A stretch of 64,000 bases of DNA from a virus: positions 1 to 64,000 of IMG/VR virus record IMGVR_UViG_3300027850_000003, one strand, 5' to 3'. Shown in pieces: positions 4,422 through 62,537 of the stretch (within the stretch, counting starts at the first letter, position 1; the number at the start of each line of letters is the position of its first letter). Both the position numbers and the translations under genes were made by a program. Below the pieces are notes generated by a model. The model saw only the letters and a program-made list of their open reading frames with translations, searched no databases and was not told the DNA's origin.

Positions 4422-4841
4422 TTATTTTAGGAATTCTTCTTCTAAGATATCAGCTATTTGATTAAAGTCTAATTCCCAAACATCGTTTAACTCAGCTAAA
4501 CTATAATAACCCCACGTATTAACTCTATCTTCTTTTTTATAATTTTCTTCTAGTATTTCTATTAGTTTTGGATTTTCTAAGCTGATTTTAAAAAGATGTG
4601 TTCTTTCTTCTAAGTCCAATAAGTTTAGAATACTCTTAGGTAATACACTCTCTTCATTTAAAATAGTACAGCAATCATCTTCTTCAAGTAGCGCTTCCCA
4701 GTCTATCCTGTTAGTGAGGTCACAGAGAACTCCTAGACAACAAAACTTATTATCTCTACTCCTTAAATAGGATTGTCCCTGTTGATACTCTCCACTTCTA
4801 AGAGCTTCGATCCATTCTTTGATAAAAATTAAGTTAGTCAT
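4422..4841 (-). CDS. Conserved phage hypothetical protein
   Basis: WIEALRSGEYQQG...FCCLGVLCD...LND...FNQIAD motif common in phages. Confidence 0.65.
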   Translation of the reverse strand: MTNLIFIKEWIEALRSGEYQQGQSYLRSRDNKFCCLGVLCDLTNRIDWEALLEEDDCCTILNEESVLPKSILNLLDLEERTHLFKISLENPKLIEILEENYKKEDRVNTWGYYSLAELNDVWELDFNQIADILEEEFLK

Positions 4842-10217: not shown

Positions 10218-10970
10218 TTATCTAAGAATATTTTGAATAAAGTTTGAATAATCTTCTTTTATAGGTAAGTTTTCATCCACCTTTAATACTCTTCTAGTAG
10301 TTACAACTTCTTTTTCAGTAATTGGGTTATATCCTTTCTTTTCATAATTCTTCCAATAAATACCTGTACCTCTTCTCTGCCAAGTAGGAGTATCATTAAA
10401 GTTAATCCCGTTACTAAATAAAAGTTCATTTTTAAATTCTTTAGTTTGCTTATCTAGCATTGAAGTAGCTTTTCTAGCGCTATTACCTAGCTTTCTTAAT
10501 GTCCAATAAGACCATCCATTTAACGCACATCTGGTAGCATCCGCCTGTCTCCAGTTAAAATAATCTACTACTAAAGATTTATTAGCTAAAGAGCAAAGTC
10601 TGCTATCAAAACTAACTATCTTATTAGAAATGTAAGAAAAATTAGAGCTAGCGATACTAGCTGAGATAGATACTAGCTTTTCAACTGATTTGTCAAAAAG
10701 ATTCCAATTGTCAATAGGAAATAAAATAGATATTTCATCTGACTCAGTATAAGCATAAAGTCCTTCTAATTCAAGCATTAAAGCTTCAGTAGTCTCTACC
10801 ATGAAGTTATGAAATTTACAATCAAAAGGTTTGTTAAAATTCTCTAATTTAGTAAATTTAGAAAAAGAACGTCCATCAACTCTAATTATTGTATATGTTT
10901 CAGGTAGTAGTTTTAAACTGTGAAAATATTCAAAAGAACGCATCTTAGTCTCAAACATATCATTGTTCAT
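10218..10970 (-). CDS. tRNA(His) guanylyltransferase Thg1-like protein
   Basis: IRVDGRSFSKFT, KPFD, YTESDEISI, FDSR, YFNWRQAD and GINFND...RRG motifs. Confidence 0.93.
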   Translation of the reverse strand: MNNDMFETKMRSFEYFHSLKLLPETYTIIRVDGRSFSKFTKLENFNKPFDCKFHNFMVETTEALMLELEGLYAYTESDEISILFPIDNWNLFDKSVEKLVSISASIASSNFSYISNKIVSFDSRLCSLANKSLVVDYFNWRQADATRCALNGWSYWTLRKLGNSARKATSMLDKQTKEFKNELLFSNGINFNDTPTWQRRGTGIYWKNYEKKGYNPITEKEVVTTRRVLKVDENLPIKEDYSNFIQNILR

Positions 10971-11003
10971 ATTAATACCTCTTACTATTTACTAATTCAT
11001 TCG

Positions 11004-12008
11004 TTATTTTCTCACTCCTTGAATAAATCTTTTGCTAATATTATTTACTTTCCCAAATACTGAATCGTATATCTTATTTACTCCTCTAGTAAAATGAACT
11101 ACCTCAGTTAAAGCATTAAATACTCTATAAGCTGAATACTTACCTTTTGATAACTCTGCTCCTTTCTGTTCTTCTAAGAGTCTCATAGTTTCCTTAAATA
11201 GGTAGTTACTATCATAGTGTTCTACATTCTCTAACTCTAATGAATATCTAACTAGCTCAGTAATCTCCTTAGAATTTAAATCTAAAGAGTTCCAATACTG
11301 GTATAACTTAACAGTCTCTTGGAATGAGAAATCTTCTATATCAAAAGAAGTAAGCAGACTCTTATAGGTTTGGCTAGCATTTCCTCTATGACTTATAGTA
11401 TATCTCTGGTCGAAGTTACTAAGAGACATTCTAAGAGTGTTATCGCATACTACTCTGGTAATAGTTGAGTAAATTGCATTAGCTCCCTTATGATTACTCA
11501 GAAACATAAGAGTTAGTAGTAAGTCATCTCCTTCTACTACTGATAAAGTATTTTGCTCTAATTGAACCCAGAACATTTTACCTTGAAATAAGACCCCTGA
11601 ACTGTAATATTGTAATTTATCAGGAAACTCACTTCTTAGTTTCTCTGCTTTATCTAATACTTCTTTATGTTGGATAATTTCGTAAATATCCGAAACTGAA
11701 GAATTTAAAATAGTATTAATATCAGGTCTAGTTAGATAATGAACATCTTCACTAGGACTGAACCTATAATATTCATGAGTAAAATACGGTTTCTTTTCTA
11801 CTATGATATTCGAGACATTAGTATGATATTCAATATCTTCCTTAGTTATATTTCTATCATTAATAACTGTTGGAACCATTTTGAAACTTTCACCAGTATA
11901 AATGTTTCGATTAGTAGTTCCTGACCACCAAGGGAGTTCCTTGCCAATAAAGGGAATTAAAAACTCGGAGTTATCATTGATAGCTTCAACTTCGATACCG
12001 TGTGTCAT
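11004..12008 (-). CDS. DUF932-family phage protein
   Basis: SGVLFQGKMFW, NHKG, RVVCDNTL, ISHRG and VFNALTE motifs. Confidence 0.75.
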   Translation of the reverse strand: MTHGIEVEAINDNSEFLIPFIGKELPWWSGTTNRNIYTGESFKMVPTVINDRNITKEDIEYHTNVSNIIVEKKPYFTHEYYRFSPSEDVHYLTRPDINTILNSSVSDIYEIIQHKEVLDKAEKLRSEFPDKLQYYSSGVLFQGKMFWVQLEQNTLSVVEGDDLLLTLMFLSNHKGANAIYSTITRVVCDNTLRMSLSNFDQRYTISHRGNASQTYKSLLTSFDIEDFSFQETVKLYQYWNSLDLNSKEITELVRYSLELENVEHYDSNYLFKETMRLLEEQKGAELSKGKYSAYRVFNALTEVVHFTRGVNKIYDSVFGKVNNISKRFIQGVRK

Positions 12009-12151
12009 AGGTTTTATCCTTTAGTTAAGTGAATGAGTAGTTAGTTACTCCCTACTTTTCTATACTTTTACTTTCGTTTCTTATCTTACGAACGAGACTA
12101 TTGTGATTTGGAGTTGGGGAAGAGAAGATTATTAGTCATAAAACAGAAGTT

Positions 12152-12198
12152 TGTATTATTTATTTTATCTTAAGGCTCCAGAATTAAAATTTAATACA
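12152..12198. repeat. Left copy of 47-bp inverted repeat flanking helicase-like gene 1
   Basis: TGTATTATTTATTTTATCTTAAGGCTCCAGAATTAAAATTTAATACA matches reverse complement of 14235..14281 at 45/47 positions. Confidence 0.95.
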
Positions 12199-12474
12199 TT
12201 ATCGTTTCTATTTTTTCACTACTTTTTACTCTACTATCTTCTATTATTATATTTATTTTTAGAATTCATAAGTTTTACCTATTGTAATTTGGAGTTGGAT
12301 AGGAAATAGTGATGTTTTATTATCTAAAGTAGATAAATAGCGGGGAAAGATATATAAAATCGAGTAAGAACGCTTAAAAAAATATCTACTCAAAATGTAC
12401 TACTTTTAATTATAACCTTACTTTTTTTTGTACTATAATACTATTATAGCTCTTTATATACGAAAAAGTAATAG

Positions 12475-14154
12475 CTAAACTATCTCGTACCCTGCAACAG
12501 TTTTATTATTGACAGACTTTCTAGTAGCTTGAATATTAAAAATTCTCTCAATATCACTAGCTTTAGCTTTTTTCTCTAATCCAATATCCTCATAAAGTCT
12601 AGTTAAAATCACTTTTATATCCTTAGATAAGTAAAAACCAAGAGTGAAAAGATTCTTAACCTCTTTGTCTATAAACTCTTGTGATCTTAAGTTATTAAAT
12701 TCTTTTCTAATCTTATCCGGTTGAAATCCTAGTCTTTTATAATCTCTTTTAGATAAGACTCCAATAGTTTCTTTTATTAATGGACAAGCATTACTAGCAG
12801 CTTCTAAACTAATTTCGTCGTTGCAATAAGCTTTAATAATATTTCTTGCATTTTTACTAACTATAAAATCTAATTTGATGAAGGGGTTTTCTAAAATTTC
12901 AAATCTTTTACTTTCTTCATAAAAACAATTGATAGAAAGCCCATTCTTATAAACTTCAATGACATCTTTGTATCTCCTCTTCTCTAATAGGAGGAGTAGC
13001 TCATCAAAGTATACTTGTCCTTCTTCATTTCTAGCCAAATAACTATCTTCTGTGAATCCCTTAGCTGCTGCTTCTTTTTGCTTATCTGTTCCAGTATTAT
13101 AAAGACTTAACCAATCATTAGTAGTCTCAATTTTTGTTTCAATTATACTTTCAAATTCTTCTTTAGTAATACTTAAAGGATTTTCATTAAATATGTGGAT
13201 AATATAGTGCCTAAAAGGATTAGTTTCAGTTCTAATACGTCCAGCCACTTGAAAAATATCAGTGTCAATGGAAACTAATGTGTTTTTATTCCTGTTATTT
13301 GAGACAACAAAAGCTAAACCTGTATCTGAATAAATATCTACTCCTTTAAATGCACAGGAAATTATAAAATTGAACATTTTCTCTGGGTTATTAGCAGTAG
13401 AAATACCAAAATACCCTAATTTTTTCTTATTTTCTAATGTATTACTACAAATAACTCTACATTCACTTATTAATAGGTCACAAGATTCAATAATATCTCG
13501 AATCATAGTAACACTGTTGACATAAAAATAGGCAGCTTGAGGTTTTTTTCCGTCTATTTCAATGTCCAAGCATTCGTCTCTAAATTTAGCTACTATTTGC
13601 TTAACTTTATAAATCGGGTTAGTAGTTTTTAAGGGAGTAACTTTAACTTTTTCAATATTATCCCACTCTAATTCAGTATAAGGAAGGTTTTTTAATTGAG
13701 TAGGAAGAAACTCTTTCTCTATTGGAGTAGCTGAGATAAAACTTACTTTAGGAAAATTCTCAATTGTAGTTAGTAGAGTATTAATTGCTTTATTTCTATA
13801 AGCATAAGCGTCTAATAAGTCACTAAATTCATCAATAACAATGTGGTACAAAGGTGATATAAAAGAAGCTACTTTATGAAAAGAATCGTAAGTCACCATT
13901 ATTTTAGGTACTTCTGTATTCTCAATATAATCTTTTATTGTGACTTCAGTAACTCCTGAGTAAACCCCTAATATATCTTCTTTTCTTCTATTATTAGGGT
14001 ATTGAGCTACTTTATTATTTATCATAGCTACTGTAGGAACTACTAAGACTAGAGCATCTGAGTTCTCAAGAGCAAATGAACTACAACCACACCCTGTAAT
14101 TTTTTTGTCAACTATACCTAAAGGGATTTCTGAGTATTTGTCTGAATAATACAT
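12475..14154 (-). CDS. SF2 (DExD/H)-like helicase/origin-binding-like protein with putative C-terminal DNA-binding domain
   Basis: TGCGCS (degenerate Walker A), VVPT, TYDS, IIDEF, SATP, FKGVDIY, QVAGRIR motifs; paralog of 60645..62477. Confidence 0.75.
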   Translation of the reverse strand: MYYSDKYSEIPLGIVDKKITGCGCSSFALENSDALVLVVPTVAMINNKVAQYPNNRRKEDILGVYSGVTEVTIKDYIENTEVPKIMVTYDSFHKVASFISPLYHIVIDEFSDLLDAYAYRNKAINTLLTTIENFPKVSFISATPIEKEFLPTQLKNLPYTELEWDNIEKVKVTPLKTTNPIYKVKQIVAKFRDECLDIEIDGKKPQAAYFYVNSVTMIRDIIESCDLLISECRVICSNTLENKKKLGYFGISTANNPEKMFNFIISCAFKGVDIYSDTGLAFVVSNNRNKNTLVSIDTDIFQVAGRIRTETNPFRHYIIHIFNENPLSITKEEFESIIETKIETTNDWLSLYNTGTDKQKEAAAKGFTEDSYLARNEEGQVYFDELLLLLEKRRYKDVIEVYKNGLSINCFYEESKRFEILENPFIKLDFIVSKNARNIIKAYCNDEISLEAASNACPLIKETIGVLSKRDYKRLGFQPDKIRKEFNNLRSQEFIDKEVKNLFTLGFYLSKDIKVILTRLYEDIGLEKKAKASDIERIFNIQATRKSVNNKTVAGYEIV

Positions 14155-14234
14155 ACGCTGATTTAATTACTTTTTATGTTGTTTTATTTATTATAACTCA
14201 CTTTATATATAAAAAAGTAAAAACCCACCTAGAT

Positions 14235-14281
14235 TGTGTTAAATTTTAATTCTGGAGCCTTAAGATAAAATAAATAACACA
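14235..14281. repeat. Right copy of 47-bp inverted repeat
   Basis: Reverse complement of 12152..12198 with 2 mismatches. Confidence 0.95.
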
Positions 14282-14468
14282 TAATCGTCATAATTATATA
14301 ATCTATTTCTTAATTTTCCCAGCATTATAGTAAGTGATTAGCTATTATTGTAGTTAAATTTAGAATTTCTAAAAATAGCTATAATAATAATCTTTCAGCT
14401 ACTAAAGATTTACTGAAAATTAGAAAGAATAGATAATTACCAGGGAGTTTTTAGGCTCCCTTTCTCAT

Positions 14469-14675
14469 TTACTCTTTCAACTCATAATCAGTACAATTCT
14501 CAGCGTGGTATATTTCAGAAGGGTTTACAGCACAAGGAAGATGCTCATTCCCATTATAAAATACACATTCTGAGCAAGTAGGAGGTAGTTCTTCTATTAT
14601 CTTATATAGCCAGTCAGGATCGAAATCTTCTGGTAAATCTTCTAGCTCTTCAAATCCATCTTTTTCAATAGTCAT
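14469..14675 (-). CDS. Small Cys-rich protein, DUF6464-like
   Basis: CSECVFY...LPCAVNP...CTDYE motif resembling a cyanobacterial family. Confidence 0.6.
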   Translation of the reverse strand: MTIEKDGFEELEDLPEDFDPDWLYKIIEELPPTCSECVFYNGNEHLPCAVNPSEIYHAENCTDYELKE

Positions 14676-15729
14676 AATTAACTCCTAGTAATAATTAAGT
14701 AGACCAATATTTCAGATAGTAGTAAGCAAGTGCCTAGTGAGTTGTTTTCTGTCATGATACTTATCTTTTTAAATGTTTCCCAAGTTTTTTCGGTCAACAC
14801 ATTATGAATTATCATTGTTAGAGTTTTTCCAAATAGACCCAAATACTACCTCGCATCGCTACCGCCTCTTTAACATAGTGATATCCTAGTGCCAGCCAAT
14901 CTCTATTACCTAATGATGAAGCTAACTCGTCAAAAGTGTCAATAGCTACCCAACCATTAATGCCGTCAAACGGGTGTTCTGTTATGTCAACCGCTTCTTG
15001 AATTGTCATCTTTATTTCCTAAGTTAGTAAGAGGAGTTTTATAATAGCTCCTCTAGTTATTATTTGTTAATTTAATTTATCTTTTACTGATTTAGTATCG
15101 TCTGTAACTTCACGATCAATTTTTTCTCTAGCTTTACTTTTTTCTTCAGGAGTAGAAGCTTCACGTCTGGGTTCCATTAGCTTATCTATTTCTTCTCTAG
15201 ATTCAGGGGAAACGTAGTTAGGGATATTCATATTATTTTTTCTACTATTTTATAATAATTTAGTTGTTTTCTTCTTCATTTAAAGGATAGTCATCTAGCG
15301 GAATAAATTCTGAGTCATCTTGTTTAGCTACCTCTACTGCCATTTCAAAAGCTTCAGGAATTTCTAGCTCCGTAGCAATCTGATAAACTTCTAGATCGAA
15401 CTCAGGTAAATTGAGGTCATTTGAAAAAGTCATAATTTTTACTCTCTACTTTTAGATAAATCATTACGTTTTCTACCATATCTTTAAAAGAACTAAAGTG
15501 ATTTATTTCTTCATCTCCTATAAACCAATAATACTGCTGTTCTAATTCATTTCCTTGTTCGTCATATTTTTCACTTAAATAGTCTTCTCCACTTTTATAA
15601 GTAAAATCATGTAAATTATCAATGAAATAGTCTAGTAGATTTTTATAGAAATTCTCGTGGTATTCAGTTTCCATAGTTTTTCTGATTTAAAAAGGTCTAA
15701 GATATTTCACCTAGACCTATAAAGGTTAA

Positions 15730-18700
15730 TTATTTACTTTTTTCTGGCATTAAACATTTATCTGAGTCACATCCTGTACTACCTGACTCCGCTACAAAGT
15801 CAAATCCTTTAGAATATTGGTTAACTAGAGTTACAAAGTCAGTAGAAATTTGTCTATTTTTTACTGCTTGCATTTCTTCTAAGTATTTCTCATGAGTAAT
15901 AGGTTCAAAAGGTAGTCTAGGAAACGTCTCTAGTGAGTCGAATTTCGCGAGTAAGGCAGCAGAGATGTAACCTTCATCATTTTGTATTAGGTTGTAGATA
16001 GCGGTTCCTAGTGGCTCGATTTCAGCTTCTGTGAGTTCGATAGTAGCTGAAACAGTATGAGTAGCATAGTATTTCTGAACTTGCATAAAAAAATCAAGTT
16101 GAGCTAGCACAGTGTTTTCGCTAGGGTTGTAATCTGCCTTATCCGCTATAGATGCCCAAGATACTTCTACTGGAATTTCTATTAACACTTCATTAACTCT
16201 TGGGTCATTTATGTCATTTAGTAGATTTCCATTTTCGTCTTTGCATGATTGAGAAGGAACAATATTATAGCCATAATCTTTACTAGCACTAACAATAGGA
16301 CTATTACTACTAAAAGTAATCCTACGAATATATCTAGTAGCTTTAGGAGCGTGCCAACCAGCCGAAGCATTAGTAAGTAAAGAAACGGAGCCTGAAGGTT
16401 GTACAACAGTATAACGATTAGGTTGTTTAATACTATGTCTTTTGCAATACTCTTCAACTGTTTCTCTTACACTATTTTTCCATAACTCTAAATAATAACG
16501 TTCAGTATCTAAGAAATATTGAGCTTCTGAAGAGTCTTTACTTCTTCCAGTTTTCCACCATAACAGCCAGTCAGCACCAAACTTATTGACAAAGAAATCG
16601 AATAATCCAGTAAAAGAAATTCCGATAATAGGATCAATTTCACGAGAATATTTAAAATCTTCAATATCAAATTCATGACTAAGTAAAGGTAAAGCTGCTA
16701 AGGTAGATGCTTTAAATGCTTCTACTTGTTCCAGTTCGTTATTTGGGTCTAAATTATTTAAATGTACTTGAGATAAGTTGCACAGAAATTTTTCACCTAA
16801 AACCTCAAAACAATTGTGAGTGACGATACCATTAGCAATAAAAGAGTTAGTTAATGGGACGTGTAAATCATAAACAGTTTCTTCTCCTACTTCTTTTACT
16901 GAAACTACATTAGAAGAATAACGTTTATTTACTGTCTCCTCTAAATAGTTTATTAAAGGTTTTTCTACCCATAAATCTGCTTGTTCTTGTTTAAGAGGAC
17001 AAAGAGGAAACCCAATTATTTCCACAAACCTATTAAAACTCTCAGCAAATATTGATAAAGTATAACTACCATTATTATTACTTATTTTTTTTGTACCATC
17101 TTTTAAAGTATACGGAACTCCTTTAGCTCCTGACTTTACAGCGCATCTAGTAGATGATATAATTCCTAAGTTTAAAAGTAAAATTTGTATTTGCTCTATA
17201 AATTTTTTTGATTTATTCACTAACAGTGCTTGACGAGCTACTGCTTTATTAATATTCCCTACTGAACCATCAGCAGAAAATAAACCTTGCAAAAAACCTA
17301 TAATAGTTTCTCTTCTCTCTTGAAAAAAGCTAACAGGTAACTCTTCTTTTGTTTGCACGTTTAATCTATCAAACCAATCACTTAACTTTAAAGAACAGGA
17401 TTTAAATTCATACACTCCTTTGTGTAGTCTAGGAATATATCTATGCTCAGTAATTGTCTCTAAAGCATAAAGAACTGTAGTTCCTGCTGTTAAATATTCT
17501 TTAGGATTAAATACGAATCCTTTAGCTAAATACTCCGCTCTATTTTTACTTCTGCTTTTCATTTTCACGTTATACCCATCACCATACCACCAACCTAGCA
17601 TTTGAGACTGTTCAGAATTAATATTATTCTTAGAATCTTCACCCCATTTTCCTTCTCCTTGTTGAAATAAAACTTTATGTTCGGAAGTTAAATTTTTAGT
17701 TTCTACCCAACCTTTATCCGTAAAATGTTGATGATTAGAAGTAGATTTAACAGACAAACCATTAGCTAGTTTTACTTCATAAATAGCTTTAACTCCTGTA
17801 GAAAATGCAATAGCCTGTGTTTGGATTACTCCAGAAAGACCAATAGTTCTTAAATCTACAGAAGTCTCAAAAGTTTTACCAGCTAAATCTTGAATAGGAA
17901 CTAAACCATTGGCAGTAGCAATTAGAGTATCCCCAATTAGGCAGGGGTTGGCAGAATACCGTTGCATTCGATGTTCTAGTTCTTTATTATCCATTTCTTT
18001 TAAAGATAGGAGATAGTTACTACCATCTCTTCTTGACTGACAATAGAGTGCAATAAACTCTAGCTTCTTTTCGCTTGTATTCAGTAAATCAACATTACCT
18101 CTAGCAATAGCTTCTGGAACATATTGAATTGCCCCTTCTCCTGAGTAGTATTGCTTTCTAACTGCTTCAATAATAGTTTCCAAATCAGGTTTATTATGGT
18201 AACAAAGAGTATGATTTCCAAATCTAAGCATATCTCGGTCAGGGTCAATTTTCCAGTTACCTTGATCATCCTGAACCCATAAATTATCTTTTGACTCAGA
18301 AAAGAATTTATCGCTTGGAGTTCCTTGATTAATTCTCGCACTTCTTCTGATGTTCCCGGAAACGGCTATTACCCCATGAATAGCTAAGATTTTACATATT
18401 TCTAAACTATTTAATTTTCTTCCTACTGAAGTGTTTAGTATTTTGATAATATTTTTAAGCCCTTCTTCTAGTCTCTCAGGGTTACTTAATCCTCCAAAAC
18501 CTTTAAGAATTTTCCCAGCAGGTCTTACTTCCGATAAATCTATATAAAGGTGAATTTTTTCATATTTTACATTTTCAAAGTTATAAGAGAAATCAAAGGA
18601 TGCAAATTTTAATAAGTCAGTAGCAATATCAACCCAACCTTCTTTAGAATCTCCTACTTTATATTTAATAACTAAAGCTTTAGAATCTGAGTCTAGTGAA

Positions 18701-19182
18701 CAAGTATAATTGCTACTCTCAAAGATATTATTCTCATTCCATTGAGAGCCTAGCTCAACTACTTCTTTTACTTCAATAGAGTAATTAATCTCGGGCAACT
18801 GACTAATAATATGCTCCTCAACTACTGTCCCAACTCCACATCCCATTAGTAAAGCTCTAAAGTTAAATCTAAACGCTTTCCAGCTATCTACTGGAACTGA
18901 GGCACAATTATATGCACCAATAAAGTTCTTCTGCTGTTTTACCCAGTCAGTACCTCCGATCCAAAACCATCTACCAGATACAAAGACAATGTTCTTATAA
19001 AAATACTCCCTAACTAACTCTAATTCTTTATCTGTCAACAATCCAAAATCTTGTAATCCTTTAATCGCTCTATCTTTAGCTTCTTGAGCTGTCTCCTTAG
19101 CCCCAGTTGCAGAAGTTCGAGAATAGCTACGAAGAAATAACGGGTAAGCAGTAGTAGCAGTGAAATCAGTATTCTGAGGCAT
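15730..19182 (-). CDS. nrdJ: Class II (adenosylcobalamin-dependent, monomeric RTPR-type) ribonucleotide reductase with intein
   Basis: SGRWFWIGGT, AYNC, GCGVG, GNIRRSA, ANP|C.E, LCNL, VQPSGSVSLL and C-terminal GCDSDKC motifs. Confidence 0.93.
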   Translation of the reverse strand: MPQNTDFTATTAYPLFLRSYSRTSATGAKETAQEAKDRAIKGLQDFGLLTDKELELVREYFYKNIVFVSGRWFWIGGTDWVKQQKNFIGAYNCASVPVDSWKAFRFNFRALLMGCGVGTVVEEHIISQLPEINYSIEVKEVVELGSQWNENNIFESSNYTCSLDSDSKALVIKYKVGDSKEGWVDIATDLLKFASFDFSYNFENVKYEKIHLYIDLSEVRPAGKILKGFGGLSNPERLEEGLKNIIKILNTSVGRKLNSLEICKILAIHGVIAVSGNIRRSARINQGTPSDKFFSESKDNLWVQDDQGNWKIDPDRDMLRFGNHTLCYHNKPDLETIIEAVRKQYYSGEGAIQYVPEAIARGNVDLLNTSEKKLEFIALYCQSRRDGSNYLLSLKEMDNKELEHRMQRYSANPCLIGDTLIATANGLVPIQDLAGKTFETSVDLRTIGLSGVIQTQAIAFSTGVKAIYEVKLANGLSVKSTSNHQHFTDKGWVETKNLTSEHKVLFQQGEGKWGEDSKNNINSEQSQMLGWWYGDGYNVKMKSRSKNRAEYLAKGFVFNPKEYLTAGTTVLYALETITEHRYIPRLHKGVYEFKSCSLKLSDWFDRLNVQTKEELPVSFFQERRETIIGFLQGLFSADGSVGNINKAVARQALLVNKSKKFIEQIQILLLNLGIISSTRCAVKSGAKGVPYTLKDGTKKISNNNGSYTLSIFAESFNRFVEIIGFPLCPLKQEQADLWVEKPLINYLEETVNKRYSSNVVSVKEVGEETVYDLHVPLTNSFIANGIVTHNCFEVLGEKFLCNLSQVHLNNLDPNNELEQVEAFKASTLAALPLLSHEFDIEDFKYSREIDPIIGISFTGLFDFFVNKFGADWLLWWKTGRSKDSSEAQYFLDTERYYLELWKNSVRETVEEYCKRHSIKQPNRYTVVQPSGSVSLLTNASAGWHAPKATRYIRRITFSSNSPIVSASKDYGYNIVPSQSCKDENGNLLNDINDPRVNEVLIEIPVEVSWASIADKADYNPSENTVLAQLDFFMQVQKYYATHTVSATIELTEAEIEPLGTAIYNLIQNDEGYISAALLAKFDSLETFPRLPFEPITHEKYLEEMQAVKNRQISTDFVTLVNQYSKGFDFVAESGSTGCDSDKCLMPEKSK
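16813..17943 (-). mobile_element. Intein with LAGLIDADG homing endonuclease (377 aa) in nrdJ
   Basis: Begins CLIGDT, ends VYDLHVPLTNSFIANGIVTHN followed by C; LGWWYGDG and FLQGLFSADG blocks. Confidence 0.95.
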
Positions 19183-36533: not shown

Positions 36534-37649
36534 TTACTTTTTGCTATCGTAATGTTGATTCATTACTTTACAACTAAGATTATTACTATCTAACGTTCTT
36601 ACTATTATACCTTCCACTGCCCAGTTATCATTTATCTCATAATCATTAAAAATACCTTCAGCAATTTCTACTAAATGATTGTAGTCTTTAGGGAAAATTT
36701 GAGTATAAGTGACGTACTCTAGTTCTAATTCTTTACAGATGGATTCTACTTCTTTAGGTAGTAGTTTAGTAGCATAGCCACCACTTAAATCTAAATCATC
36801 TATTCCAAATATTGATAATCCTGATTTTAGTTTAGAGTGTGGATTTTGTTTATTACCAGAACCTTTAGTTACTTCCGACCCATATATCTCACCTCTAAAA
36901 GCTAACTGTCTGTTATACCTTAAGGCTTTTTCGTATAGCCCTGTAGAATGTGCAAGTTTGACCCATCTATCTTCATTACTTGGATTATCTGCATCTTTCT
37001 TTTCTAATACTCTACTGCACACACCTACTGTTAGCCCACTTTCTTTCTCTTTAACATACAGAGAAAAACTAGAACCATCTATCTTTAAGGAATAACCAAT
37101 AGACTCCCCCGATTCAATAAGCCTATTAATATAAGATTTGAGATTTGCGCTGTTTTCTTCGTCAGTTTTATATAGAAATCCTGGTAGATTACCTTTAGTA
37201 TTACCAGTACCAAATTTTTCAGGTTCTTCATACTTAGTAATATTTAAAAACTCAGCTAAGTCATTCACATCTTCAGGAATATCTACTTCATTTTCAGGTA
37301 AAAGAATACCATTTGAATAAATAACGTCGCTACTATTCTCCTTAGTAAAGTTAAATTTAATAGCTCTAATCCTATTATTTCTGCCTAGTTTAGATTTTTT
37401 AGGATCACCATTAGGAGTTATAAAGCTACTAAATAGTTTCGTATCAGGAACACAGTAGTCAGGTTGAATATATAGCGCTTTATCTCCAATCTGATATAAA
37501 TCTTTTTGAGACACTACATTGAACCCACATTCCTCCCCATTAAGGAATGAGAAATTAATTAGTTCTATATTTGTAGCTTCTTCTCCCGTTCCTTTCTTAA
37601 TTAGTGGGTATTTAACAGTGATAGTTACAATTTCTACTGGATTAATCAT
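36534..37649 (-). CDS. RNA ligase (Rnl2/DRB0094-like)
   Basis: KTDEE, KIDGSS, VCSR, RGEIYG, EGIIVR and CKV nucleotidyltransferase motifs. Confidence 0.88.
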   Translation of the reverse strand: MINPVEIVTITVKYPLIKKGTGEEATNIELINFSFLNGEECGFNVVSQKDLYQIGDKALYIQPDYCVPDTKLFSSFITPNGDPKKSKLGRNNRIRAIKFNFTKENSSDVIYSNGILLPENEVDIPEDVNDLAEFLNITKYEEPEKFGTGNTKGNLPGFLYKTDEENSANLKSYINRLIESGESIGYSLKIDGSSFSLYVKEKESGLTVGVCSRVLEKKDADNPSNEDRWVKLAHSTGLYEKALRYNRQLAFRGEIYGSEVTKGSGNKQNPHSKLKSGLSIFGIDDLDLSGGYATKLLPKEVESICKELELEYVTYTQIFPKDYNHLVEIAEGIFNDYEINDNWAVEGIIVRTLDSNNLSCKVMNQHYDSKK

Positions 37650-59718: not shown

Positions 59719-60579
59719 ATTACTATAAGAGTTAAAAAAGGAGCTTTGAAACTATCTTAACTCCTATACTTTCCAGTTATCTAAGTTAGTAATATCTAAA
59801 TCATTAGTAGCAAAATGTTCAACTGCTTTATCAGTAGCTTTAGTAAAGTCCTGGTCAATGAAAGCTTTTATTTTATAAGACTTCTCACTATGCTCAATAG
59901 TTAAATAATTATGCTTAGAGTCTAATAGTGAAAGAGTTAAGAGGTATTTATTACAGAAGCTAGGTAGCTGCTTAGGAATAGCCACATAGCATGAACCACA
60001 CTCTTCAACGTTTCCCATTAAATTATTATTGAGATCAATCCATTGACATTTAGAGACTTTAACAGTAGTGATAGAAGGTTTAATAGTAAATTCTTTTTTC
60101 TCCAATTGAGCTATTGACTTTTTACTTGCTAAGTCAGTTTTTTCTATTTTTTGTTCAGGTATTTGGTAGCAGTATTCATAACCAGAAGAGAAGAAGGAGT
60201 CTAAATAGTCTACTTGAGTAAACTTATCGAAGTAGGAATGATTATAGATAATAATAGTACCAAATTCAGTATCAATCCTTTTCTTAATGTGGATGATATC
60301 TTCTTTATTACGGATTAGGAAATTAGTAAGTATTTGCTGAATCATTATTTTATTATTAATAGTTTTCTAGTTACTCCTTACATTATAGCAAGATAAGAGC
60401 TATTCTCCTAGCTACTAATATAGGAATGAGAGAACGAGTTCAGGCGAGAGAAAGAATGAGACTTAGTTACCTTGAGTTATTGGAAGAGTAGGATTCTTCC
60501 TTTTTTTACTGTAACTATACTTTTGGTTAGTCTATTATTTCAGATATTTTTGGAAAAACTTACAAAACTTATTTATTAG

Positions 60580-60610
60580 ATTCCATTTTTTACAGTAATT
60601 ATTCAGTATA
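60580..60610. repeat. Left copy of 31-bp perfect inverted repeat flanking helicase-like gene 2
   Basis: ATTCCATTTTTTACAGTAATTATTCAGTATA equals reverse complement of 62507..62537. Confidence 0.95.
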
Positions 60611-60644
60611 ATAGATATATAAACTAATAAAAAAGGTAATATCT

Positions 60645-62477
60645 GTGTCTGATATAATTAAAATCCAAGCTCCTGAGTCTGCTCTTTATATGAGTAACTT
60701 TATGACTGAGCTTCCTCACGGCATTATAAATAAAAAAGCTTGCGGAGTAGGAGGTAGTTTCATTGCTATTACTAATCCAGAGAATTATATTATTGCTGTA
60801 CCTACTACAGAATTAATAAAGAATAAATGTTTTCAACACTCTGATTTACTAGGTATTTACTCAATTAAAGATAGTGGAGTTACCTTCAAAATGTTTAAAG
60901 AGTATATTGAGACTCATAAAGTCTTTAAGATAATGACAACCTATGATTCTTTACCTAGAGTAGTCAAATGGTTAAAAGCTTTAAAATTAAATGTCTATGA
61001 AGACTTTAAACTTTTAATAGATGAGTACCATAAAATTCTTAGTGATTATAGTTATAGAGATAAAGCAATACAAGGGCTATTAGAAGAGTCATTAAAATTT
61101 AACTACTATACTTTCCTTTCTGCTACTCCGATTAACCCTAAGTTTATTCCTAAAGAATTAGTCGAATTACCTTACTATGAAATTGAATGGCATAGTACCA
61201 AAAGTATTAAACCTTATAGGAAAAAGACTGCTAAACCTTTACTTCATGCAGCTCATATCATTAGCAATTATAAAGCTAATAACTATTCCGCTGAACTTAA
61301 AGTAGACGGACAAATCTGTATTAGTAATGAAGCGTATTTCTTTGTAAACTCAGTTCATTCTATAGCAGATATCTTACACGCAACTAACTTAGTTCCAAGT
61401 GAAGTAAAAATTATCTGTGCTAATAATTCCACTAATAGAGATGTGTTAGACCCTTTTCCTATTTCATCAGTAACAGATACAAATAAACCTTTTACATTTG
61501 TTACTTCTAAATCTTTTTTAGGATGCGACTTCTACTCAGAAAGTGGGATAGTTTATATGATTAGTAATGTAAATAAGAAACATACTCTACTAGATATTTC
61601 AACTGATATTTTTCAGATTAGTGGGAGAATCAGAAATACTAATAATCCTTTTAGAAATATTCTTTTCCACATTTATAATACTGGAACTTCTGATTTAACT
61701 AAAGAAGAGTTTGAAACTATTTTAGAAGAGAAAGTAGCTAATACTAATGTTCAAATAGAAACTTTTAATGGACTAAGTGAACTAGCAAAGAAAGCTAATC
61801 TTAAAAGATACTCAATGGATTTAGAAGATGATTATAGTTATTACAATCCAGATACTAATCTCTTACAATTTAATGAACTAAAGAAACTAAATGAAGAGTT
61901 TCAGTTTAGTATTATCAATGATATTTATACTAATGGTTTCTCAGTTAGAAGTGCTTATGAAAATGCAGGATTTGATGTAAGTGAAGATCAAGAATATATT
62001 TCCTATGAAGAAGATTTCATTGAAAATATGACAAAGATTAGCTTCAAAGGTATCATGCTAGAGTATTGTAAGCTAGCAGATAATATTGAGAATTTAGATT
62101 TAGAATTTGTAAACAGTAGAAGATTTACTTTAGAAAAACTAGCTCAAGAAAATTTATCATTAGATATAAAAGAGATAGTAAAAAAAGTAGGAACTAAAAG
62201 AATCCGAACACTAAATTATGCTAAAGTAGCTATCAACAAAGAATTATATAGCAAGTGTGATGAGGTGAAAGATGCTATTAGTGAAGCGATCTACAACAAA
62301 CTAGAGAAGAATACTTTTTATTCTACAGCTCAAATTAAACAAGTTTTAGGAAAAATTTATAAAGATTTTAAGATTGAAAAAACACCTAAAGCAGTAGAAC
62401 TTGATAAATATTGTAGTATTCGCAAGGTAAGTAGAACTGTAGAAAATAAATTAGTTAAAGGAGTCTTTATAGTGTAA
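60645..62477 (+). CDS. SF2-like helicase/origin-binding-like protein (paralog of 12475..14154)
   Basis: CGVGGS, AVPT, TYDS, IDEYH, SATP, FLGCDFY and QISGRIR motifs. Confidence 0.75.
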   Translation: MSDIIKIQAPESALYMSNFMTELPHGIINKKACGVGGSFIAITNPENYIIAVPTTELIKNKCFQHSDLLGIYSIKDSGVTFKMFKEYIETHKVFKIMTTYDSLPRVVKWLKALKLNVYEDFKLLIDEYHKILSDYSYRDKAIQGLLEESLKFNYYTFLSATPINPKFIPKELVELPYYEIEWHSTKSIKPYRKKTAKPLLHAAHIISNYKANNYSAELKVDGQICISNEAYFFVNSVHSIADILHATNLVPSEVKIICANNSTNRDVLDPFPISSVTDTNKPFTFVTSKSFLGCDFYSESGIVYMISNVNKKHTLLDISTDIFQISGRIRNTNNPFRNILFHIYNTGTSDLTKEEFETILEEKVANTNVQIETFNGLSELAKKANLKRYSMDLEDDYSYYNPDTNLLQFNELKKLNEEFQFSIINDIYTNGFSVRSAYENAGFDVSEDQEYISYEEDFIENMTKISFKGIMLEYCKLADNIENLDLEFVNSRRFTLEKLAQENLSLDIKEIVKKVGTKRIRTLNYAKVAINKELYSKCDEVKDAISEAIYNKLEKNTFYSTAQIKQVLGKIYKDFKIEKTPKAVELDKYCSIRKVSRTVENKLVKGVFIV

Positions 62478-62506
62478 TTACCTTTTCTCTAAGTATTTTT
62501 ATCCTA

Positions 62507-62537
62507 TATACTGAATAATTACTGTAAAAAATGGAAT
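62507..62537. repeat. Right copy of 31-bp perfect inverted repeat
   Basis: Reverse complement of 60580..60610 (31/31). Confidence 0.95.

Follow-up and report, generated by a model that had tools for sequence, protein, structure and literature searches.

Several described systems pair a DNA-binding protein with short repeated sites, or enclose single genes between repeats. The alpha protein of phage P4 and the Rep proteins of iteron plasmids carry a winged-helix tail and use repeated short words; in P4 alpha the order is primase, helicase and winged helix, and Rep autoregulation works through a site that overlaps the promoter of its own gene. The UL9-type origin-binding proteins (OBPs) join, according to the domain plan given in PMC12543377, an N-terminal body of the superfamily 2 (SF2) helicase type to a C-terminal sequence-specific DNA-binding domain, and their sites are inverted copies. 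The PeSL cassettes of T4-type phages (Arbiol et al. 2010, PMC2839356) are, as far as that account describes them, single repeat-flanked genes whose repeats contain promoter DNA and which are present or absent between close relatives, the empty site keeping one chimeric repeat. Free-standing GIY-YIG homing endonucleases are selfish, movable gene content. The locus described here resembles each of these systems in part. It lies in the first 64,000 nucleotides (the window) of IMG/VR record IMGVR_UViG_3300027850_000003, a freshwater phage contig (G000) of 129,969 bp with a GC content of 32%, and consists of one helicase-like gene, p1, enclosed by a 47-bp inverted repeat in a unit of 2.13 kb. Our preferred reading, held tentatively and at somewhat less than an even chance, is that the unit is a portable cassette that couples a site-specific DNA-binding protein to its cognate sites and probably serves as an initiator-origin module. 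The parts of the unit are as follows; positions beyond the window refer to the full contig.

12152 to 12198: left arm, 47 nt, composed of the reverse complement of word W, a 9-nt centre and then W', a degenerate copy of W on the plus strand
12199 to 12474: spacer between the left arm and the p1 stop codon
12475 to 14154, minus strand: gene p1, encoding P0001 (559 amino acids), with an SF2 helicase-like core and a predicted winged-helix tail
14180 to 14198, minus strand: third copy of W, AGTTATAATAAATAAAACA, overlapping a TATAAT-like box 25 to 45 nt before the p1 start codon
14235 to 14281: right arm, an inverted copy of the left arm (45 of 47 positions agree); W lies at 14263 to 14281 on the plus strand
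Word W itself, 19 nt, on the minus strand in the left arm: AGATAAAATAAATAATACA

The two arms match at 96% of their positions and are 2036 nt apart, and the inverted repeat stands as the original prediction had described it. Alignment of the left flank with the reverse complement of the right flank gave a score of 42.0, whereas 100 shuffles averaged 11.4 and reached at most 14.0. An 18-nt core of the arms occurred twice in the window, where 0.14 occurrences were expected and none of 100 shuffles reached two, and the count was also two across the full 129,969-bp contig, i.e., the core is found only in the two arms. Each p1 arm is a dyad of two inverted half-sites. The copies of W at 12152-12170 (minus), 14180-14198 (minus) and 14263-14281 (plus) are complemented by a degenerate partner in each arm, and the copy at 14180-14198 forms an inverted pair with the right arm at a spacing of 64 nt. 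The two mismatches between the arms (TGTATTA...TAATACA versus TGTGTTA...TAACACA) sit at mirror positions near the arm ends and are compensatory in the way first described; however, the self-complementary arm ends that had been claimed along with them did not rise above chance. The RNA minimum free energy of the arms ranged from -4.2 to -7.5 kcal/mol (shuffle p of 0.04 to 0.24), and the score of an arm against its own reverse complement equalled the shuffle mean. A hairpin in each arm is thus unsupported, and the claim for it comes down to one coordinated pair of changes.

No homologue of the p1 arms was found in any fetched locus, the top score being 20 for an unrelated rumen locus, and a megablast of 11000-15700 against the phage collection gave no match. 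The sequences directly outside the unit (…CAGAAGTT before the left arm and TAATCGTC… after the right arm) have no direct repeat in common, and the earlier statement that no target-site duplication is visible holds. A 20-mer, CTATTGTGATTTGGAGTTGG, is directly repeated at 19 of 20 positions, once outside the unit (12098-12117) and once in the spacer (12279-12298). It lies upstream of a DUF932 gene and has a weak third copy at 18830-18849 on the minus strand.

The p1 unit is one of a set. Five full paralogues and two fragments of the gene are present on the contig, the paralogues being 35-49% identical to p1, and the two fragments adjoin p2 and p3.

60580 to 60640: left arm of p4, a 61-bp inverted repeat matching at 85%, its first 31 nt perfect
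60645 to 62477, plus strand: p4, 610 amino acids, 36% identical to p1
62477 to 62537: right arm of p4, beginning at the last base of the stop codon
87089 to 88876, plus strand: p3
102520 to 104304, plus strand: p5
119410 to 121092, plus strand: p2

The brackets of p4 and p5 scored 38.5 (61 nt) and 28.5 (41 nt), respectively. The left arm of p4 contains TATAAT and AAGG just before the start codon, and copies of the p4 word are found at 60581-60602, at 62515-62536 and, as a third and partial copy, at 60497-60518. The p5 word occurs at 102447 (plus), 104300 (plus) and 104353 (minus). Around p3 there is no long repeat; inverted copies of an 11-nt word bracket the gene and three more lie upstream (86947, 86961 and 87041 on the minus strand, 87084 on the plus strand, 88906 on the minus strand). 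At least three word copies per cassette are therefore found in p1, p3, p4 and p5. The arms of p1, p4 and p5 are mutually unrelated, and the paralogues have no words in common, so that each bracketed copy of the gene carries private repeats.

The association of such repeats with this gene family is specific. When the contig was compared with itself by BLAST, just three inverted pairs had a spacing below 4 kb, and they bracket p1, p4 and p5. As a control, the flank inverted-repeat score was determined for all 267 open reading frames (ORFs) of at least 150 amino acids in the contig and in two related contigs, G001 (146.5 kb) and G002 (150.4 kb). The six highest scores (42, 38.5, 28.5, 24.5, 18 and 18) all belonged to genes of the family, while the maximum among the 257 non-family ORFs was 17.0. 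The p1 arm score in G001 and G002 stays at the shuffle level.

Gene p1 is the only long ORF inside the unit, which three short ORFs (44-52 amino acids) also overlap, and its product agrees with the first description of an SF2-like protein whose P-loop, TGCGCS, lacks the lysine. The layout of P0001 continues with DE at 108-109, SAT at 141-143, QvaGRIR at 302-308, a helical region and the predicted winged-helix tail at about 489-559. An AlphaFold (AF2) model built on 29 relatives had a predicted local distance difference test score (pLDDT) of 86.6 and showed two RecA-like domains in an SF2 fold. Foldseek returned at least 500 matches to this model at E <= 0.001, and among the matches listed, all were SF2 helicases. 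At the level of sequence, the Pfam DEAD model matched 9 of the 29 aligned relatives (best E 3.2e-8). P0001 itself had no match in Pfam, PHROG or NCBIfam; PADLOC reported only a Cas3d stretch (E 0.0028), and in a profile search of Protein Data Bank (PDB) sequences a PVC protein and a phage tail tube were the only matches, all at E >= 0.038. Residues D108, E109, S141, A142, T143, Q302, G305, R306 and R308 are invariant in the 29-relative alignment A1, as are the lysines at positions 17 and 48. The absence of a transposase or recombinase was likewise confirmed: Pfam, PHROG, NCBIfam and PADLOC revealed no transposase, recombinase or nuclease domain in P0001, and the Resolvase (PF00239) and Phage_integrase (PF00589) models had no match on the contig, the DDE families not having been searched one by one.

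The C-terminal module, when modelled alone, had a pLDDT of 87, and its last ~70 residues are predicted to form a winged helix. In VIA-align comparisons with winged-helix DNA binders, the tail matched the RFX DNA-binding domain on DNA (Z 7.0), RFX5 (6.2) and the C-terminal region of NrS-1 (5.4), followed by DpnI on DNA (4.9) and the P4 origin-binding domain (1ka8, 4.5), all of these scores being at or below the level that VIA-align calls common. A predicted complex of two C-terminal modules scored 0.00 against a mark of 0.42, which speaks neither for nor against binding. Two GIY-YIG nucleases encoded on this contig have C-terminal parts homologous to the last 100-120 residues of P0001 (E 9e-6 and 1e-8), and GIY-YIG genes directly adjoin p2 and p4. 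The tail is thus of the kind that homing nucleases use for target finding, and as judged from this homology and the modelled fold it may well bind DNA.

45064 to 45879, minus strand: GIY-YIG nuclease whose C-terminal 105 amino acids are homologous to P0001 458-559
62563 to 62895, plus strand: GIY-YIG nuclease domain alone, 110 amino acids, directly after the right arm of p4
121036 to 121827, minus strand (L009:1444-2235), beyond the window: GIY-YIG gene overlapping the 3' end of p2

The first of these genes has a further connection with p1, in that 14193-14216 in the p1 promoter region is identical (24 of 24 nt) to 45941-45964 upstream of the nuclease; the similarity runs on into a word-like stretch, AATAAAACA, and the nuclease there has a p1-like tail. 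For the tail of the nuclease at 121036-121827, the nearest counterpart is in the helicase-like gene at locus L123, whose lineage is absent from this contig, as if a DNA-binding tail had been borrowed from a rival cassette.

The positions held by the family vary between related phages. G001 and G002 are each syntenic with the contig over ~98 ORFs. Empty sites, which the original prediction had thought relatives might reveal, are found at p2 and p3: the p2 block (117930-122576) and the p3 block (86747-90773) are both absent in G001 and G002, where the flanking genes are adjacent or ~250 nt apart. An 86% orthologue of p2 adjoins the portal gene in G002, and a 69% relative of p1 in G001 occupies the locus that is held by p4 here. 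The contigs G000 to G005 contain 5, 2, 3, 3 (one of these a fragment), 1 and 1 family copies, respectively. The intergenic DNA of G001 and G002 is too diverged for nucleotide-exact insertion boundaries. The p2 insertion block also contains one copy of an ORF family of 131-139 amino acids, which has three copies with DNA-level similarity and no Pfam match (4422-4841, 122069-122479 and 125615-126010, all on the minus strand).

Alleles of the p1 unit were sought in contigs of sequencing runs from four studies, the runs X1-X4 among them. In X2, p1 and both arms are kept, while the spacer piece 12216-12469 (254 nt) is missing and 10 other letters stand in its place; this piece of the spacer is thus dispensable. 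In X3 and X4, which come from different studies, one contig each joins 12189 to 14291 on the same strand, so that p1 is skipped and one arm is kept. A total of 17 letters lie between the two sides of the joint and, by eye, are nearer to the right-arm end than to the left-arm end. Read by eye, the retained arm resembles the left arm over its first 38 nt; of its last 9 nt, 8 agree with the right arm and 5 with the left arm. This joint does not look like an assembly collapse, because de Bruijn collapse at inverted repeats gives joints of the inversion type and not same-strand deletions. In X4, parts of the spacer and the 3' end of p1 are present at flank depth and the gene body is almost uncovered. 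In the likely source run, both arms are interrupted by contig breaks. Judged from these contigs, the p1 locus is not fixed. The retained single arm fits a crossover between half-sites in direct order, and it may also reflect plain divergence.

The words travel and change with the gene, as far as orthologous loci indicate, because four observations agree: an 80% orthologue of p3 (L014, in G003) has different neighbour genes, yet the p3 word flanks its start and stop at unchanged distances; the orthologues L011 and L013 have their flanks in common, with inverted words immediately ahead of the start and behind the stop; the paralogues have unrelated words; and run X2 carries a paired change, 12169 C>T and 14264 G>A, at mirror positions of the two p1 arms. 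The paired change also bears on a different explanation, in which the arms are regulatory only. They would then be either a duplicated promoter or operator with convergent sense and antisense transcription, or the two sides of a read-through RNA stem around the ORF that controls processing or translation, like the RNase III stems at rRNA genes. The change in X2 would preserve such an RNA pair, the upstream arms of p4 and p5 carry TATAAT (that of p4 with AAGG before the start), the copy after the stop faces inward, and in the p1 unit a TATAAT-like box at about 12425-12445 likewise points inward. We nevertheless consider this explanation improbable. Promoter-like matches in the region are at chance (15 versus 14.5 expected), and the p1 arm lies upstream of the p1 promoter. 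In p4, the perfect 31 nt are upstream of the -10 box and outside the transcript of its own promoter, while most differences within the transcribed part of the arm are A/T transversions. A stem would have no need of the additional word copies in both orientations, four of them upstream of p3, no Rfam match was found in 11000-15700 at E <= 1, and the multi-copy, movable pattern would be left unexplained.

The empty allele raises the possibility that the unit is purely selfish and has no role in replication, its dyad arms being recombination sites in the manner of PeSLs. With two inverted half-sites per arm, any pair of arms also has half-sites in the same orientation. Recombination between these would remove the gene, with a single chimeric arm left behind, and the opposite event would insert it; the protein, and perhaps its tail-sharing GIY-YIG neighbours, would promote this. 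The single arm of the empty allele, left-like for 38 nt and then right-like for 9 nt, would be accounted for in this way, as would the variable positions of the lineages, the empty sites, the gene fragments beside p2 and p3, and the GIY-YIG genes directly beside p2 and p4. A parallel is the RB49/phi1 comparison reported in PMC2839356, where a cassette is replaced by a single chimeric PeSL. However, PeSLs as described in that paper are direct repeats of one common sequence that flank many unrelated ORFs, whereas the arms here are inverted, differ from copy to copy and go with a single protein family. P0001 has no nuclease or recombinase domain (a difference from the GIY-YIG homing endonucleases, with which it has the C-terminal module in common), no circles or junctions have been seen so far, and the chimeric look of the single arm could be divergence of a related strain. 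The conservation of a 560-residue helicase-like body in 3763 clusters would also be left unexplained. This account is compatible with, and not exclusive of, a cassette of protein and cognate sites that serves replication; as a complete explanation we regard it as unlikely, though as the most probable of the rival explanations.

A classical transposon with terminal inverted repeats was rejected. Such repeats are present, but no transposase was found among the families searched, a target duplication is lacking and no two copies have the same arms; the empty p1 allele keeps a whole arm, unlike the shared ends and target duplication expected of a transposon. The suggestion of a mobile unit in the original prediction therefore stands for a portable cassette, with five paralogues, shifted positions, two empty sites and the X3/X4 joint, and not for a transposon of this type. 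The same prediction raised an invertible segment, in which a site-specific recombinase acts on the arms and flips the gene. The inverted geometry would suit this, the closest p1 relative in G001 runs against the direction of every neighbouring gene whereas p1 shares the direction of its own neighbours, and a low-depth contig of X1 joins 12479-12554 (minus) to 12319-12404 (plus), which indicates that some variant or paralogue carries part of the spacer in inverted form. Inversion of the gene is nonetheless very improbable: the contig is without a serine or tyrosine recombinase (PF00239 and PF00589 searches), the gene in G001 is at a different locus and hence is not an inversion in place, and turning round a whole gene together with its promoter would have no obvious effect. 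Only the spacer piece is involved in the X1 joint, in a record ~90% alike.

The family to which P0001 belongs is large, with 3763 clusters at 50% identity (E <= 0.001), has no Pfam model of its own, and has members in phages, prophages and elements of Bacteroidota. A single-protein scan of viral contigs found no relative of P0001; the alignment-based scan did find relatives. One relative, P0124 (901 amino acids, on a 4.1-kb Logan contig), has an N-terminal BT4734-like_N domain (E 4.9e-10), and this arrangement resembles that of P4 alpha. BT4734-like proteins are placed in the archaeo-eukaryotic primase (AEP) family in the classification given in PMC5862659. Another, P0086 (919 amino acids), has an unrelated N-terminal region of 320 residues without a Pfam match, and no fused forms of 980-2795 amino acids were found, which is weak evidence. 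Locus L120, a metagenome contig with a 47% relative, has long direct repeats as flanks (score 155.5) and a frame that is broken after 123 codons. The top match among species genomes (L200, 37%) is on an 11-kb contig of a Pseudanabaena metagenome-assembled genome, and this match hints that the phage clade infects filamentous cyanobacteria. The bacterial homologues lie in phage or mobile-element contexts: one in Cyclobacterium is 2.3 kb before the large terminase and Dam methylase genes, and one in Sphingobacterium adjoins a T5orf172 protein and an Eco57I-type methylase. On a 26-kb viral contig, the homologue is between genes for HNH and winged helix-turn-helix proteins and an NgoBV restriction-modification pair. 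No functional clue comes from these contexts.

A cassette of protein and cognate sites remains the reading that we prefer. The nuclease-type tail, the three or more private words, one of them over the promoter, and the movement of the words with the gene point to a site-specific DNA-binding cassette. The predicted winged-helix tail would read a private word of ~19 bp, and each 47-bp arm would offer it two inverted half-sites, with a fifth half-site overlapping the p1 promoter. Binding at the promoter would lead to autoregulation, as with Rep. Binding at the arms, which face each other across the gene, would allow the helicase-like core to melt or remodel the DNA so that replication starts, and the cassette would be one of five private initiator-plus-origin modules that this phage carries. 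The start of replication is the most likely function of the module by analogy, because the protein has a helicase-type body and a plan like that of UL9 and of winged-helix initiators, one relative is fused to a primase domain, and p1 lies among replication genes. Since the sites travel with the gene, such a module could be gained, lost and moved between related phages through recombination at the sites. The origin or own-site-binding module envisaged in the original prediction thus gains indirect support from the predicted tail fold, the tail shared with GIY-YIG nucleases, the private words and the primase fusion. The unit would still differ from P4 alpha and the iteron Rep proteins, with which it has no sequence homology, in that its motor is SF2-like and lysine-less, not SF3 (superfamily 3) or absent, and in that its candidate sites bracket the gene.

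A number of observations weigh against this reading. In known origins the sites are tens of bp apart, as they are for UL9, and not 2 kb apart around a gene. We know of no precedent for five initiators in one phage, and five paralogues, each with private sites, are a further difference from the OBPs. Neither p2 nor its orthologue has any bracket. Among more distant homologues most are unbracketed: of 76 testable viral loci, L013, L014 and L052 alone had a bracket at least 4 above the shuffle maximum, L010 and L059 being marginal, and 6 of 57 testable metagenome loci were flagged, mostly distant rumen phage genes. The expectation that homologues are generally flanked by inverted repeats therefore holds for close relatives in the phage clade and fails for distant ones. 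Evidence for the X3/X4 joint is thin: its two contigs are short, have low depth, match at a likeness threshold of 85% and extend for 52 and 40 letters on their shorter sides. The primase fusion of P0124 is a singleton, the only one among the 150 relatives listed. As for the tail, its winged-helix Z scores do not exceed what is common, and a Foldseek search with the tail alone gave nothing at E < 0.3 (best E 0.33).

The helicase-like core adds to these difficulties. The Walker A motif GxGK[ST] is found in none of the 29 aligned relatives and in none of 42 further homologues down to 23% identity, the family reading TGCGxT instead. The Walker A mutant of T5 D2 loses both ATPase and helicase activity in the experiments reported in PMC3632103, and according to PMC12543377 the corresponding lysine of the herpes simplex virus 1 OBP, K87, contacts the nucleotide. 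The P0001 core may consequently not be a working helicase. In the comparison with UL9 that the original prediction suggested, UL9 (9hgi_B) ranked first in Foldseek (E 3.4e-9, query TM-score (TMq) 0.41, root-mean-square deviation 23.6), with a match no better than those to DbpA, Snf2 and WRN (E 3.4e-9 to 7e-9, TMq 0.35-0.41). The Pfam model Herpes_ori_bp (PF02399, the accession used in the relevant passages of PMC3632103 and PMC5862659) matched neither P0001 at E <= 1 nor the 29 relatives at E <= 0.01. Membership in the UL9 family is rejected, since neither this model nor the catalytic lysine was found; the predicted tail of ~70 residues also differs from the 316-residue C-terminal domain of OBP.

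The surroundings of p1 form a replication gene block, with class II ribonucleotide reductase and PolA nearby. The reductase gene (15730-19182, minus strand) is interrupted by an intein with a LAGLIDADG domain, and its homologue in G001 has only 430 amino acids over the matched part. Also near the unit are genes for a Thg1-like tRNA-His guanylyltransferase (10218-10970), the DUF932 protein (11004-12008) and an RNA ligase (36534-37649), all on the minus strand; the Thg1-like gene has a homologue only in G002, the RNA ligase gene only in G001, and the DUF932 gene in neither. The cumulative GC-skew minimum of the contig is at ~56 kb, 4.6 kb from p4. It was set aside as evidence for an origin because it coincides with a switch of gene strand.

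A bolder version of the preferred reading, which we regard as a long shot, is that the portable origin represents a new class of mobile element in large phages. The lysine-less SF2 protein and its dyad sites would replicate the surrounding DNA and jump between co-infecting genomes by half-site crossover, and GIY-YIG nucleases with the captured tail of a rival lineage would attack the sites of that rival, so that cassettes would compete for loci. New here are the genome-wide control, the dyad structure of the arms, the one-arm empty allele of p1, the paired change in X2, the family-wide loss of the lysine and the primase-fused relative. A search of full-text literature found no description of the family or of phage helicase genes bracketed by inverted repeats; supplementary files were not covered by it, and the domain-architecture tables of PMC5862659 might list such fusions.

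The origins of large uncultured phages are almost all unmapped, and if each cassette consists of an initiator and its site, these origins could be read from sequence. If this reading is true, it would define a large unnamed family of helicase-shaped proteins without the canonical P-loop lysine, and origin-plus-initiator pairs would behave as movable, competing modules that trade DNA-binding tails with homing nucleases. Even if the protein is only a selfish DNA binder, the family would still provide a clean natural set of matched protein-site pairs.

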